From assembly GCA_023128895.1 (NCBI GenBank), contig JAGMDC010000003.1, positions 70,514 through 134,513 on the forward strand: DNA of 64,000 nucleotides, read 5' to 3'. This document shows positions 4,595-21,115 of the stretch, one piece after another; positions within the stretch are counted from its first letter, which is position 1, and each line of letters begins with the position of its first letter. The notes under the pieces are model-generated. The model was not told where the DNA came from. It was given only the letters and a program-made list of their open reading frames with translations, and did no database searches. This DNA comes from Candidatus Parcubacteria bacterium (GTDB lineage Bacteria > Patescibacteriota > Minisyncoccia > Minisyncoccales > JAGMDC01). Made by a program: the position numbers and the translations under genes.

Positions 4595-4760
4595 ATGAGA
4601 GTGTGGGACAATATTTTTCGTAGCGAGAGTTTCAAAATTTGAGACAAATTTTTCAAATAATTTTTGAAACCTGTATGGAATACAAGTTGAGGAAATTTTT
4701 GGGAAATTTGACCGAATTTTGGAAGTTGCAGCAGAAAGGATATTGTTCTACACTCTCATA
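4595..4760. repeat. pair of inverted copies of a ~20-22-nt motif (ATGAGAGTGTGGGACAATAT at 4595-4614; GATATTGTTCTACACTCTCATA at 4739-4760) bounding a ~166-bp unit
   Basis: Seen in sequence; a third copy lies upstream of murA (21040-21061, minus). Confidence 0.6.
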
Positions 4761-4763
4761 ATT

Positions 4764-6644
4764 ATGAAGGTTTTTGAATATCATTTTAATCCTAAAAAAA
4801 TTAACGGGTGGAGTTTTGACAGTTTTTGCTATGAACCGGAAAACGCAAAAGAGAAAAAATTAGGCAATTTATATTTTGTTGGCGAAACAGTATCCTCTGT
4901 TGAACCGAATTTTTTAGATGACTTGGCGCAACAGGCAAAAAATATATATTATACTAATAAACAAAATTTGGGTCCTGAAAAAAAATTCCAGCAAACCCTG
5001 AAAGAAACAAACAATTTTCTGCAAAAAAAAATAAAAACCGGAAATATTGACTGGATTGATAATTTAAACTTTGCGGCGCTGAATCTTGCTTCCAACAAAG
5101 ATTCATCATGGAATCTGAATTTTACTAAAACAGGAAACATTAAAATCCTTTTAATTAGAAACAACCGAATTTCAGATATTACTCTGAACTTGGAAAACGA
5201 AACAGCAGATTCTGATTCCATATTAACCCAAATTTCGCCCAACAAAATTCTAAACCACAAACAATTCTTTGGAAACATTGCCACAGGGAAATTATATCAA
5301 AACGACAAGATACTGATTCTTACTAAAAATGTTTTTTTTGCTGTTAAAAAACAAGGCATCTTAAACCAAATATCTGAACTTTCCCCTTTCAGCGAAAAAC
5401 AATTGAAAAAAATTTTCAAAAAACACAAAAATATTTTCTCCAAAATTTCAGGCGCGCTTCTTTTAATAATCGCTAAACCAGAACCAAAACCAGAACCAGA
5501 ACCAGAACCAGAACCAGAACCAGAACCAGAACAAAAGCAAGAGCAAAAAAAAGAAAACCGAAAACAAATTTTTGAAATTCATCCGTCCAAGATAGATTTA
5601 TCTTCTCTTAAACTGCTTATGCCTCGCCCCCGGCTTCCGCAACTTTCGCGCTTGCCGCGGCTTCTACGACTTCCGCGCCCCAAAATTAAATTTTTTGACA
5701 AACAAAAATTCGCTAATTTAAATAATAAATTGAAACAACTTATCGCTGACCTTAAAGAACTGCCTCTGCTCAAAAATTTAATTTTTATAATTCTTCTGAT
5801 TTTAATACTAATTCTTGGCTCTTTTATATTCAAAAGCGACGAAAGAAAAGAAAATCAAAATATAAAACAGGAATTAGAACAAATTGAAACAAGAATAAAT
5901 CAAGCGGAAAGTTTCTTGATTATTAAAGAAGACGAGCAGGCAATGATTTTGTTCAAAAAAATATGGGAGCAAGTTCTGCCTTTGACTGAAATTGAAAATC
6001 CATTATTAAAACAAGAAGCGCTTTCTAAGAAAAAAATAATTGAAGAACATCTAGACCCTTTGAACAAAATTGAAAGAATAGAACATGCAATTGTGTTTGA
6101 TGGAACTGAAACGATTTTCACAAACACCCCTGAAAATTTTGAATTTAAGTCCTGGTCTATTTACAATAACAATATCTATTTTCTTGACCCTATCACTGGA
6201 CGAATTCTGAAACACGCCTTGTTGGGCGCGGAATTGAAAGACCTAAAATTAAACAACCTTAAAATTTGGCTCAAATCAGAGACCTTGCTCGGCGCGAAAT
6301 CAATTGCTGTGGACGGCAGTGTTTGGATTTTGAATCGCGAAAATCAAATTGAGAAATACTACGCTGGCGCGCTCCAGAAAACCCTGAAATTAAATTTCTT
6401 TCCCGAATTTAAAAACCCTGAAAAAATTTACACCTCCCCTTTTCTACCCTATATTTATATTTTAGAGCCGGTACAGAAACGAATTATTCTAATAGACAAA
6501 AAAGGAAATATCAAAAAGCAATTCATCAGCGAAAAATTTGTGAATTTATTGGATTTCGCCATATCTTCTGACGCCAAAACCATCTACTTGTTAAACGCCT
6601 CAACCGACACCGTTGACACAATCATCTACGAGATTGAAATATAA
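4764..6644 (+). CDS. hypothetical protein with a (PE)n/KPEPEPE low-complexity tract, a proline/arginine-rich segment and one TM helix
   Basis: Long ORF; start moved to ATG 4764 (MKVFEY...) because the conserved 22-nt pre-start motif ends 3 nt upstream; the track start is 4719. Confidence 0.6.
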   Translation: MKVFEYHFNPKKINGWSFDSFCYEPENAKEKKLGNLYFVGETVSSVEPNFLDDLAQQAKNIYYTNKQNLGPEKKFQQTLKETNNFLQKKIKTGNIDWIDNLNFAALNLASNKDSSWNLNFTKTGNIKILLIRNNRISDITLNLENETADSDSILTQISPNKILNHKQFFGNIATGKLYQNDKILILTKNVFFAVKKQGILNQISELSPFSEKQLKKIFKKHKNIFSKISGALLLIIAKPEPKPEPEPEPEPEPEPEQKQEQKKENRKQIFEIHPSKIDLSSLKLLMPRPRLPQLSRLPRLLRLPRPKIKFFDKQKFANLNNKLKQLIADLKELPLLKNLIFIILLILILILGSFIFKSDERKENQNIKQELEQIETRINQAESFLIIKEDEQAMILFKKIWEQVLPLTEIENPLLKQEALSKKKIIEEHLDPLNKIERIEHAIVFDGTETIFTNTPENFEFKSWSIYNNNIYFLDPITGRILKHALLGAELKDLKLNNLKIWLKSETLLGAKSIAVDGSVWILNRENQIEKYYAGALQKTLKLNFFPEFKNPEKIYTSPFLPYIYILEPVQKRIILIDKKGNIKKQFISEKFVNLLDFAISSDAKTIYLLNASTDTVDTIIYEIEI

Positions 6645-6677
6645 ATAACAAAAATTCAACAACCCACAACCAAAAAA

Positions 6678-18757: not shown

Positions 18758-19765
18758 TTACTTCTTTGACATTATGCTTTTCTTATATATATCCAAATTT
18801 TCCAAAACCGCGCCAGTGCCTTTTGCAACGCAAAGCAAAGGATTTTCCGCCACGAAACAAGGAACCCCTGTTTCCTGAGAAATTTTTTCCTCAATATTTC
18901 TTAATAAAGCCCCTCCTCCGGAAATTACCATTCCTTTATCCATTATGTCTGCTGAAATCTCAGGCGGCGTTTCCCTTAAGACAATTTTCACATTTTGAAT
19001 TATTTCATTTAAGACATCTGAAGTCGCTTCACAAATCTCGTTAGACGAAACCTTAATTGTTCTTGGGAGCCCTGAAATCAAATCCCTTCCCCTGATTTCC
19101 AATTTTTTTTCTTCTTTCTCGGGCAAAGCTGTCCCGATTTTTATCTTTATATCTTCCGCTGTTTGTTCCCCTACCGCTAAATTGTGCTTTCTTTTAATGT
19201 ACTCTGATATTACATAATTAATTTTATCGCCGGCCACTCTTAACGAAGACGATGTTACAATCCCGCCCAAAGAAATAGCCGCTACTTCAGAAGTGCCTCC
19301 TCCAATATCTACTATTAAATGCCCAGAACAAGTATTAATGGGAATACCAGCGCCAATTGCCGCTAAAATCGGCTCTTTCGCGATATACACCGCTTTCGCG
19401 CCTGCGTTCATTCCCGCCTCTATTACTGCCCTCTTTTCTGTGGAAGTAATTCCGGCAGGGACGGCAATCATTAATTCCGGTTTAAAAAATCGGAACGAAC
19501 CGACAACTTTAACAATAAAATACCTGATCATTGCCTGCGTTACTCTAAAATCAGCAATTACGCCGTCTTTTAACGGCCTGTAAACTTTAATAGTGCCTGG
19601 AGTTCTGCCTATCATTTCCTTTGCCTGCGCCCCTACTGCCAAAATTTTATTCTCGTCTAAAGATACCGCCACAACTGACGGCTCCTGCAAAACAATGCCT
19701 TTGTTTGGAACAAAAACCAAAGAGTTTGCTGTTCCTAAATCTATGCCAATTTTTTTAATAAACAT
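18758..19765 (-). CDS. MreB paralogue
   Basis: DLGTANSLVFV, DIGGGTSE. Confidence 0.85.
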   Translation of the reverse strand: MFIKKIGIDLGTANSLVFVPNKGIVLQEPSVVAVSLDENKILAVGAQAKEMIGRTPGTIKVYRPLKDGVIADFRVTQAMIRYFIVKVVGSFRFFKPELMIAVPAGITSTEKRAVIEAGMNAGAKAVYIAKEPILAAIGAGIPINTCSGHLIVDIGGGTSEVAAISLGGIVTSSSLRVAGDKINYVISEYIKRKHNLAVGEQTAEDIKIKIGTALPEKEEKKLEIRGRDLISGLPRTIKVSSNEICEATSDVLNEIIQNVKIVLRETPPEISADIMDKGMVISGGGALLRNIEEKISQETGVPCFVAENPLLCVAKGTGAVLENLDIYKKSIMSKK

Positions 19766-19776
19766 AATTCTTGATT

Positions 19777-21039
19777 TTAAATTTTTATTCTTTTAATATC
19801 CGCGCCTAAACTTTGGAGTTTCTGTTCAAAATTTTCATATCCTCTGTCAATTTGATTAATATTATTCATAATTGTTTCTCCTTTTGCCAGCAAAGCCGCA
19901 ACAACAAGAGACGCGCCAGCCCTAATATCCCAACTTTCAATACTTAAACCGCACAGAGAAGTTTTTCCGAATATAATAGCCCTGTGCGGGTCAACAATTT
20001 CTATGTCAGCTCCCATTTTTCGCAATTCTTGAAGATAATTAAACCTTGATTCATACAAAGGATCGTGCACCAAACTCTTGCCCTGAGCTTGAGTCAAAAG
20101 CACGGAAGTAAAAGGCAGAAAATCAGTGGGAAACCCTGGATAGAAAAATGTTTGCACTCTTGCCGGCTTAAGATTTGGAGAATACCCGACTGTGATGGAA
20201 TTTTCCCCTTTCTTAAAATTAACTCCTATTTCTTCTAATTTGTCTAAAAACAAATCTAAATGGTCAAGGCGGATATTTTTAATATTTACTTCACCAGGAG
20301 TCACGCATCCGGCAGTAATAAAAGTTACAGTCACAATAGGGTCCGGAATTATTGTATGCTCTACTCCTTTCAAATCCTCCCTGCCCCTGATTGTAATAGT
20401 ATGACCTCCCAATCCATTAATTTCCACGCCCATCTTTTTCAGCATTTCTCCGACATCCTGCACTTGCGGTTCGCAAGCCGCTCCCTTTATAATCGTTTCG
20501 CCCGGAAGAAGCGATGCCGCAAGCATAACATTTTCAGTAGCAGTTACGCTAAACTCTTTTAAGACAATTTCTGTTGGCACCAAATTTTTTGCTTGAAAAA
20601 AATAAAAATCTCCCTGTTCTTTAATTTCCGCGCCTAATTTCTTTAATGCTTCCAAATGAGTTGTAATAGGCCTTAAACCGATTTTGTCGCCCCCTGGACG
20701 CGGAATTTTTAATGACCCAAACCTTGCGAGCAATGGCCCTATCAGTAAAACAGATAATCGTGTTTTCGCGAATTTCTCAAAATCAAGATTTTCCGGCTTG
20801 ACTTCTCTTGTGTTGATTCTTATTTTCTTTGTGTCCAAGCGCTCTATTTTCGCGCCCATATCTTTGAGAATATTTAATATCACAAAAACATCTTCTACCA
20901 GAGGAAGATTGTCAATAATCACATCTTCATTGGTTAAAAGCGAAGCGGTTAATACGGGACCGGCAGAATTTTTATATCCCTCAATTTCAACTTCGCCGTT
21001 CAACGGTTTTCCGCCCTGAATAATAAATTTCTCTGACAT
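19777..21039 (-). CDS. murA: UDP-N-acetylglucosamine 1-carboxyvinyltransferase
   Basis: MurA N-terminal pattern FIIQGGKPLNGEV; start set at MSEKF (the track's longer start abuts a terminator T-run). Confidence 0.9.
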   Translation of the reverse strand: MSEKFIIQGGKPLNGEVEIEGYKNSAGPVLTASLLTNEDVIIDNLPLVEDVFVILNILKDMGAKIERLDTKKIRINTREVKPENLDFEKFAKTRLSVLLIGPLLARFGSLKIPRPGGDKIGLRPITTHLEALKKLGAEIKEQGDFYFFQAKNLVPTEIVLKEFSVTATENVMLAASLLPGETIIKGAACEPQVQDVGEMLKKMGVEINGLGGHTITIRGREDLKGVEHTIIPDPIVTVTFITAGCVTPGEVNIKNIRLDHLDLFLDKLEEIGVNFKKGENSITVGYSPNLKPARVQTFFYPGFPTDFLPFTSVLLTQAQGKSLVHDPLYESRFNYLQELRKMGADIEIVDPHRAIIFGKTSLCGLSIESWDIRAGASLVVAALLAKGETIMNNINQIDRGYENFEQKLQSLGADIKRIKI

Positions 21040-21115
21040 TGTGTTGCTATGAGAGTGTAGAACAATATCATTATACCCCCAAAAATCCCCTCCTGTCAAA
21101 TTTCGCGCGCTCATA

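Follow-up and report, generated by a model that had tools for sequence, protein, structure and literature searches.

Why does an identical 22-nt motif lie just upstream of two unrelated genes on opposite strands of the same contig? The question arises in a 64,000-nt stretch of a Candidatus Parcubacteria genome (contig JAGMDC010000003.1, positions 70,514 to 134,513; hereafter the window, i.e., the whole stretch that was analysed), where the motif precedes murA and a gene encoding a 626-aa protein. We argue that the 22-mer is probably one end of a repeat of about 164 nt that folds into a hairpin and is placed between promoter and start codon in several Patescibacteria genomes, rather than a translation signal.

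The 22-mer (GATATTGTTCTACACTCTCATA) occurs exactly at 4739-4760 on the forward strand and at 21048-21069 on the reverse strand, with 22 of 22 positions identical. By chance, none would be expected: 100 dinucleotide-preserving shuffles gave no match. A first-pass annotation of this DNA had recognised the identical copies on opposite strands, but its coordinates for the second, 21040-21061, are 8 nt off. Its statement that the motif ends 3-8 nt before the ATGs holds: the gap is 3 nt for the 626-aa open reading frame (ORF; ATG at 4764) and 8 nt for murA (ATG at 21039). The near-perfect reverse-complement copy that it had placed at 4595-4614 is also present. This third copy (ATATTGTCCCACACTCTCAT, reverse strand) is a degenerate version: of its 20 positions, 18 agree with the right arm and the other 2 yield G.U pairs in RNA of the forward strand. 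A sequence profile built from 12 copies found no further arm in the window, which makes three in total. Matches of its proteins put the organism with Parcubacteria/Paceibacteria-like Patescibacteria.

At 4.6 kb, the two copies form the outer arms of a single near-perfect hairpin of about 164 nt: positions 4595-4759 fold at -70 kcal/mol on the forward strand (z = -11.9) and at -42 kcal/mol on the reverse strand. Exact-pattern scans of genome and metagenome collections returned matches in four other Patescibacteria sources: the metagenome-assembled genome (MAG) CAYLWZ01 (three contigs, L009, L011 and L014, the same DNA as L053, L044 and L031), the MAG CSMAG_488 (L007), a 1.3-kb metagenome contig (L047) and three Paceibacteria-like genomes (L015/L029, L016 and L022). 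The first three of these assemblies hold further units, and what had been described as a 166-bp unit bounded by inverted repeats is one member of a dispersed palindromic family with conserved arms. The units of the window, L047, L011 and L007 are full forms (162-164 nt), homologous from end to end, and share one layout: a left arm (ATGAGAGTGTnGnAyAATAT), the segment TTTTCGTAGCGAG, about 100 nt of inner helices, the segment GCAGyAGArAGG and a right arm (ATATTGTTCnACACTCTCAT). The segment TTTTCGTAGCGAG is identical in the window unit and L011, nearly so in L007 and L047, and part of the terminal loop in the compact L014. The 56-nt forms of L014 and L009 keep the outer stem, have the two conserved segments fused into a loop and lack the inner domain; a yet shorter hairpin (ATGAGAatgACATTGTTTTACACTCTCAT) adjoins a duplicated tRNA-Val fragment in L055. 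The arms, 18-20 bp long, are terminal inverted repeats conserved across four assemblies, and they share variants within a genome (TTCTACAC in the window, TTCAACAC in CAYLWZ01). Other pattern matches were set aside as unrelated or due to chance: those in Geobacillus/Anoxybacillus (a conserved, apparently coding locus), a group from termite-gut metagenomes (a locus poor in ORFs, probably eukaryotic), giant-virus and other viral contigs (L060, the one inspected, lies inside an ORF), and single matches.

All six units have the sense orientation, with the right arm directed at the downstream gene, and in five of the six the right arm lies 3-21 nt before an ATG; in L047, the ATG is about 80 nt from the unit, with a second, degenerate right arm in between. 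The downstream genes are unrelated: they encode the 626-aa protein (window) and its ortholog (L014), AMMECR1 (L011), a CDF transporter (L009), a DUF3467 protein (L007, 3' of grpE) and an unknown ORF (L047). Since in L009, L011 and L007 the upstream gene is co-directional and has its 3' end towards the left arm, it is the unit, and not the single arm, that has to be explained. This bears on the proposal of the first-pass annotation that the motif may enhance translation initiation at genes lacking a Shine-Dalgarno (SD) sequence. Neither gene has one, as stated, but this is not distinctive, because an SD-like motif precedes only 7 of the 58 long ORFs of the window; 49 of the 51 ORFs without SD also lack the 22-mer. 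An enhancer or SD substitute was therefore rejected: SD-less genes are the norm in this genome, one arm of each unit faces no start codon, orthologs of the same genes lack the motif, and the spacing to the ATG varies (3, 4, 4, 9 and at least 21 nt). Two coding interpretations were discarded as well: L047 and the murA copy both interrupt the small ORF in the left arm (MRV..., with the only recurring frame, ATGAGAGTG...), and an N-terminal extension from an in-frame TTG is out of frame in L011, L014 and murA.

The hairpin is conserved as a structure. In the alignment of the four long units, 94% of the cells pair; shuffling lowers this to 85%, with 0 of 500 shuffles as high, and sliding the partners lowers it to 39-50%. 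Compensatory changes are seen in 17 of the 62 pairs, a number that 0 of 500 shuffles attain and that falls to 2-5 in the slid controls. Of the 35 inner-helix pairs, 16 are compensatory, against one of the 25 arm pairs, 16 of which are constant. As the arms hardly vary and the inner pairs covary, what is conserved in the outer stem is its sequence, and in the inner stem its shape. Every unit (6/6) folds better in the sense of the downstream gene, e.g., at -68 versus -41 kcal/mol, and the alignment contains 27 G.U cells in sense versus 3 in antisense (binomial p = 8e-6, computed on sequences that are related). A general mutational bias is unlikely to produce this pattern, because a second repeat family of the window, described below, has no sense/antisense bias. 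These results point to selection on one strand of sense polarity, most simply on an RNA. A riboswitch or known RNA family was considered and rejected, given that the compact units lack the inner domain, that the downstream genes are functionally unrelated and that Rfam has no match to the element at gathering thresholds (with E values as high as 10 allowed, the matches are all weak and to eukaryotic models of unrelated hairpins and small RNAs, mostly microRNA precursors).

Could the element be a regulatory device rather than an inserted sequence? The right arm might be a cis-regulatory site in the mRNA leader for a protein or small RNA, with the left arm as a sequestering anti-element, in which case the family would be a regulon and not mobile. 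The contrast between arms conserved in sequence and covarying inner helices speaks for it, as do the strict sense orientation and the excess of G.U pairs on that strand. The right arm is moreover identical in the window unit, the murA copy and L047, and again among L009, L011 and L014, even though loop similarity between the two compact forms is only about 59%; at murA, it stands alone in the leader. A 33-nt block containing the same 20-mer is also nearly invariant (32/33) in three other Paceibacteria. Yet the downstream genes have no common function, no candidate binding factor was identified, and the compact units do without the inner domain. The same genes in close relatives do not have the motif, whereas a conserved regulatory site would usually be shared, and the Paceibacteria block may be a chance 18/20 match: about 17 chance matches were expected in the genome scan, of which we estimate that about 0.3 would fall in DNA of the candidate phyla radiation (CPR). 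On balance we consider this explanation, although the main rival, unlikely. A more specific version, slightly more doubtful still, takes the hairpin as a leader RNA specific to Patescibacteria, and not just the trace of an insertion; its right arm would be the recognition site of a conserved trans-acting factor, a site masked by the left arm, with the Paceibacteria block as a small RNA decoy or partner; if true, it would represent a form of post-transcriptional control peculiar to the SD-poor, short-leader bacteria of the CPR.

The Paceibacteria block itself (GTCGTAAAAGATATATTGTrCGACACTCTCATA) lies at 902-934 in L015, at 4798-4830 on the reverse strand in L016 and at 2916-2948 in L022, with a DEAD-box helicase gene on one side and a convergent CAP-domain gene on the other, and is followed by a terminator-like hairpin. 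The proteins encoded on either side are 51-82% identical, and the rest of the spacer is unalignable. It folds into a 5' hairpin, a single-stranded ACUCUCAU... and then the terminator. The block looks like the 5' part of an unannotated small RNA ending in a terminator. It may be homologous to the element family, but one chance match in CPR DNA is plausible.

The distribution of the element among relatives bears on its mobility. At the 626-aa gene, relatives with 66-68% protein identity (L055-L059) lack the unit and keep both the flank (...tatattaacattttt...aaagaaaag.agtacaata) and the -10 box upstream of the ortholog; the unit is also absent from the more distant orthologous loci L068 and L069. 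In all, orthologous sites without the element were found in L055, L059 and L062-L069. Conversely, L047 and the window share a gene with 77% nucleotide identity and have an 85%-identical unit at different loci. Three contigs of CAYLWZ01 carry units, and the window has one unit and one solo arm. The core GAGAG...CTCTC is flanked by ATAAT/ATAAT in L011 and L014, ATTTAT/ATTTAT in L009 and AGAAT/ATAAT (4 of 5 positions) in the window; the chance of a 5-nt flank match at random positions is 0.003 per site. The nearest AMMECR1 relatives of CAYLWZ01 are at most 68% identical, too distant for a comparison with empty sites at base level. When the window unit and one copy of the repeat are removed in silico, the result is TACAAT-agaatt-ATG, which would be the leaderless spacing found at murA of L066 (TATGAA-aataca-ATG). 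The other suggestion of the first-pass annotation, that a small mobile element has these repeats as its terminal inverted repeats and that its ends have come to serve as 5' untranslated regions, fits both the presence and absence among relatives and these putative target-site duplications.

Both the window and L014 have a divergent tRNA-Val beside the unit. Partial tRNA-Val duplicates flank a DUF2330 gene in L055 (7820-9880), and a copy of a tRNA 5' half adjoins tRNA-Val in L014 (5050-5170), which suggests past integration at tRNA-Val, the locus of the hairpin element in the window and L014. The inverted copy at 4595-4614 was considered as part of the tRNA-Val promoter and dismissed, as relatives without the element keep the tRNA's own TATAAT.

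At murA the motif occurs without a unit. No hairpin partner of this arm was found, and the region folds no better than shuffled sequences (z = +1.2). The TATAAT noticed ahead of it in the first pass is real and belongs to a sigma-70 promoter matching the consensus at 12 of 12 positions. Five murA relatives (79-89% identity) keep GAATTTGACA-18-TATGAT, with 6-46 nt between the -10 box and the ATG, and the motif is missing in all five. Boxes 6-12 nt from the murA ATG in relatives speak for short leaders. Judging from these comparisons, the murA promoter is ancestral and not part of the element, and the murA copy would form the first ~20 nt of the murA leader behind it. The public murA call (P0061, 445 aa) starts at an in-frame ATG at 21114 on the reverse strand, inside ATGAGCGCG and 75 nt 5' of the likely true start; this start is probably mis-called, because the promoter and the motif would then fall inside the ORF.

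The murA promoter also weighs on the idea that the element is a portable promoter, with an outward promoter near the right arm (TTGACC-18-CAGAAA in the window, TTGACC-18-TAGAGA in L047), the arm as initial transcribed sequence and no hairpin in the mRNA. Both copies of the window have a -35-like AAATTTGAC(A/C) 36-37 nt before ATATTG and a hexamer ending 1-2 nt before the arm, and Correia elements supply promoters at their ends (PMC2649163). However, the -10 candidates of the window unit and L047 are poor (CAGAAA and TAGAGA), L011 and L007 have no -35 at that place, and the compact units lack room for one. As the murA -35 and -10 boxes are present in motif-free relatives, the likeness between murA and the window unit comes down to two consensus-like -35 boxes. 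Moreover, the sense G.U excess extends over the whole hairpin, which places both arms in one transcript. We therefore regard a portable promoter as improbable. Related candidates were also discarded: inspection of the motif as a promoter in itself (sigma-70, extended -10, ECF-like or leaderless -10) revealed no hexamer pair in constant register to the motif or the ATG, and inverting the segment as an invertible promoter would alter almost nothing, the segment itself being palindromic.

The position of the murA copy, from +1 to about +15 behind a consensus promoter, is the classical one of a repressor site, and the arms come as inverted pairs. They could thus be DNA operators of a transcription factor, one at the transcription start and an inverted auxiliary site for looping. 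Against this, the 20-mer has no internal dyad save TGT-N3-ACA, half-sites of 20 bp that are 17-125 bp apart would be atypical, and the upstream gene in L009, L011 and L007 has its 3' end on the side of the left arm. Binding to double-stranded DNA would also leave the spacer unexplained, a covarying hairpin with strand-specific G.U pairs. We consider operators highly improbable.

The explanation that we favour, with a probability of about 0.6, is that the element is a palindromic insertion element of Patescibacteria, similar to transposable elements of the miniature inverted-repeat kind (MITEs) and to ERIC and Correia elements, which would be transcribed as a 5' leader hairpin. Its full form has 162-164 nt, and internal deletion would give forms of 56 nt or shorter. 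It would insert at AT-rich sites beside a -10 box or transcription start. A -10-like box abuts the left arm in the window (TACAAT/TAGAAT), L014 (TTGCCG-17-TATAAT) and L011 (TATAAT); the boxes of the window are likely the promoter of the 626-aa gene, as the box is kept in place in element-free relatives (TACAAT in L059, TATAAT in L055). With mRNA leaders that are very short or absent, such insertions would put the right end of the element 3-9 nt from the start codon in most cases; AT-rich insertion beside the -10 box, very short leaders and tiny spacers would thus account for its nearness to start codons. Transcription from the host promoter would make the element the 5' end of an mRNA, or a part of it between two cistrons. 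This transcript is predicted to fold as one long hairpin that leaves the AUG in a short, unpaired A/U-rich tail, and if the -10-like box at the left arm is the promoter, the hairpin would lie at the extreme 5' end of the mRNA. Its most likely effect would be that of a leader that stabilises the mRNA or is processed by RNase III, an enzyme encoded in the relative L069. The anatomy, the homology of the copies, the covariation, the bias for the sense strand, the differences in presence among relatives and the flanking direct repeats were observed, whereas transcription through the element, this effect on stability or processing, and the way in which the element moves are all inferred.

Several observations weigh against an insertion element. 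Compensatory changes in the inner helices and an excess of sense G.U pairs are unexpected for a purely selfish cut-and-paste element and argue for selection on an RNA. Perfect AT-rich direct repeats of 5-6 bp occur in three of the six units, all from one MAG (CAYLWZ01), while the flanks of L047 and L007 are degraded, and part of each direct repeat (AT) is shared with the inverted repeat. Neither a transposase nor a full-length insertion sequence with the element's ends was found, and a Pfam scan of about 42 proteins of the window gave none. Copies are few: the 64 kb hold 3 arms, and one MAG has at least 3 units. Finally, conservation is stronger in the right arm than in the left arm or the loops, and the right arm persists alone at murA and possibly in the 33-nt block of other Paceibacteria, which suggests a sequence-specific role that an insertion model leaves unexplained.

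Features of the unit at 4.6 kb and of the murA copy, in window coordinates
Feature	Position	Strand	Remarks
tRNA-Val(CAC)	4469..4543	-	divergent neighbour, outside the element; own TATAAT at 4555..4550 (-)
-10-like boxes TACAAT (4586-4591) and TAGAAT (4591-4596)	4586..4596	+	abut and overlap the left arm; predicted promoter of the 626-aa gene
Left arm ATGAGAGTGTGGGACAATAT	4595..4614	+	inverted copy when read on the - strand
Internal loop, 5' side TTTTCGTAGCGAG	4615..4627	+	sequence-conserved
Inner helices	4628..4727	+	structure conserved, sequence not; include -35-like TTGACC at 4708-4713
Internal loop, 3' side GCAGCAGAAAGG	4728..4739	+	sequence-conserved
Right arm ATATTGTTCTACACTCTCAT	4740..4759	+	core of the 22-mer; ends 4 nt before the ATG
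Gene of the 626-aa protein	4764..6644	+	downstream of the element; function unassigned, conserved in Patescibacteria
murA	19777..21039	-	first of the run murA-mreB-holB-frr-rseP-proS
Solo right arm	21048..21069	-	22/22 identical to 4739-4760; the -10 box precedes it by 1 nt; 8 nt from its end to the ATG
sigma-70 promoter TTGACA-18-TATAAT	21099..21070	-	12/12 consensus; outside the element

The second repeat family of the window has three copies on the reverse strand (~26412-26591, ~37414-37591 and ~40633-40805), about 175 nt long, GC-richer and structured. Two aligned copies are about 90% identical, and the copy at 26 kb folds at -108 kcal/mol (z = -12.8). They lie inside operons (between dnaK and dnaJ, between secY and adk, and upstream of the ORF at 40212-40613), all in gene sense, each ending in ...GCTCAT 8-21 nt before the next ATG. 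There was no Rfam match, and the other loci compared hold no copy. Between the L23 and L2 genes, a 66-nt hairpin (46572-46637, reverse strand) has a 3' end, CACTCATAATT-ATG, that resembles the junction of the main element, CACTCTCATAATT-ATG. The string CTCAT occurs at most 30 nt upstream of the ATG in 6 of about 58 genes, and all these cases except the L23/L2 hairpin adjoin copies of the two repeat families.

Other features of the window are separate from these repeats. A group I intron (Rfam, 78 bits) at ~10990-11275 on the reverse strand (core 11039-11248) appears to split the anticodon loop of a tRNA(CAU), with the junctions ...GAGCCCCATA / intron / AAGCTCGAG...; the tRNA is not called by ARAGORN, and a 240-aa ORF without clear domain (10289-11011) follows the intron. 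Two tandem 287-aa paralogs without Pfam domain (54594-55457 and 56024-56887, reverse strand) share an almost unchanged upstream region that includes a strong SD (aaaggaggtataa); clear SDs like these are few in the window. Near the tRNA cluster, the ORF at 7359-8006 on the reverse strand encodes a HEPN/AbiU2 domain (abortive-infection-like).

The genomes of Patescibacteria are streamlined (~1 Mb), with tiny spacers, and a repeat family lodged between the promoter and the ATG of core genes such as murA would show that insertions are still gained and tolerated there. An RNA fold under selection would further show that insertions can rewrite 5' leaders in a lineage mostly devoid of SD sequences. 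The element also offers a concrete target for metatranscriptomic study of translation start and mRNA processing in Patescibacteria.

How does the element compare with known systems? REPINs consist of an inverted pair of ~20-nt REP sequences and a spacer, which together form a hairpin; singlets occur, the pairing is maintained over time, and the elements, present in tens to hundreds of copies, are mobilised by RAYT, a Y1 transposase whose gene the repeats flank. The inverted ~20-nt copies, the hairpin and the singlet copy are similar here. On the other hand, a Pfam scan (not aimed at RAYT) found no such protein among those scanned in the window, the copy number is low (3 arms in 64 kb), the conserved GTAG is in the internal loop rather than at the 5' end of the arm, and the spacer is a long structured region. 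Stem-loops at the 5' end of mRNAs, e.g., in the ompA leader, protect against decay that depends on the 5' end. Should transcription begin at the -10 box that abuts the left arm, the element would resemble them in placing its hairpin right at the 5' end of the mRNA, but the known stabilisers are short hairpins, each specific to its gene, instead of dispersed repeats.

Bacterial MITEs are shorter than 200 bp, A+T-rich and flanked by a target-site duplication, with terminal inverted repeats and transcripts that form long stem-loops (PMC2229807). The element, non-coding, A+T-rich and 56 or 162-164 nt long, stays below the ~200-300 bp allowed for a MITE and has terminal inverted repeats as well, and its copies, few in number, are dispersed at non-orthologous sites that are filled or empty among relatives. 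It differs in lacking TA termini: it ends in ATGAGAG...CTCTCAT, or in GAGAG...CTCTC with AT-rich flanks. The ERIC/IRU of enterobacteria are imperfect palindromes of 127 bp, shortened in places by internal deletion, which are co-transcribed, form long stem-loops, affect mRNAs in an orientation-dependent way and are conserved across fairly distant genomes (PMC2229807). Both are non-coding imperfect palindromes of ~130-160 bp in transcribed intergenic regions, with shorter deleted variants. Here, however, the sequence is unrelated, the phylum is another one, copies are far fewer and without TA termini, and a single orientation to the downstream gene is found, with the right end abutting the start codon.

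The Correia/NEMIS elements (CREE) of Neisseria, of ~100-160 bp with terminal inverted repeats of ~24-26 bp, often lie just upstream of genes, supply or abut promoters, give hairpin transcripts that are bound or cleaved by RNase III, and vary in presence among strains (PMC2649163, PMC2229807). In contrast, the putative duplication is here AT-rich and of 5-6 bp instead of TA, copies are few per genome instead of hundreds, and the inner helices are maintained by covariation (the sequences were compared by inspection only). The likeness lies in the size, the terminal inverted repeats, the place upstream of genes, the abutted promoters and the differences in presence and absence. Our literature searches for dispersed repeat elements in Saccharibacteria, Patescibacteria or CPR returned nothing relevant. 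So read, the element adds a new family to a known type of intergenic repeats of bacteria, in a phylum from which we found no report of one.

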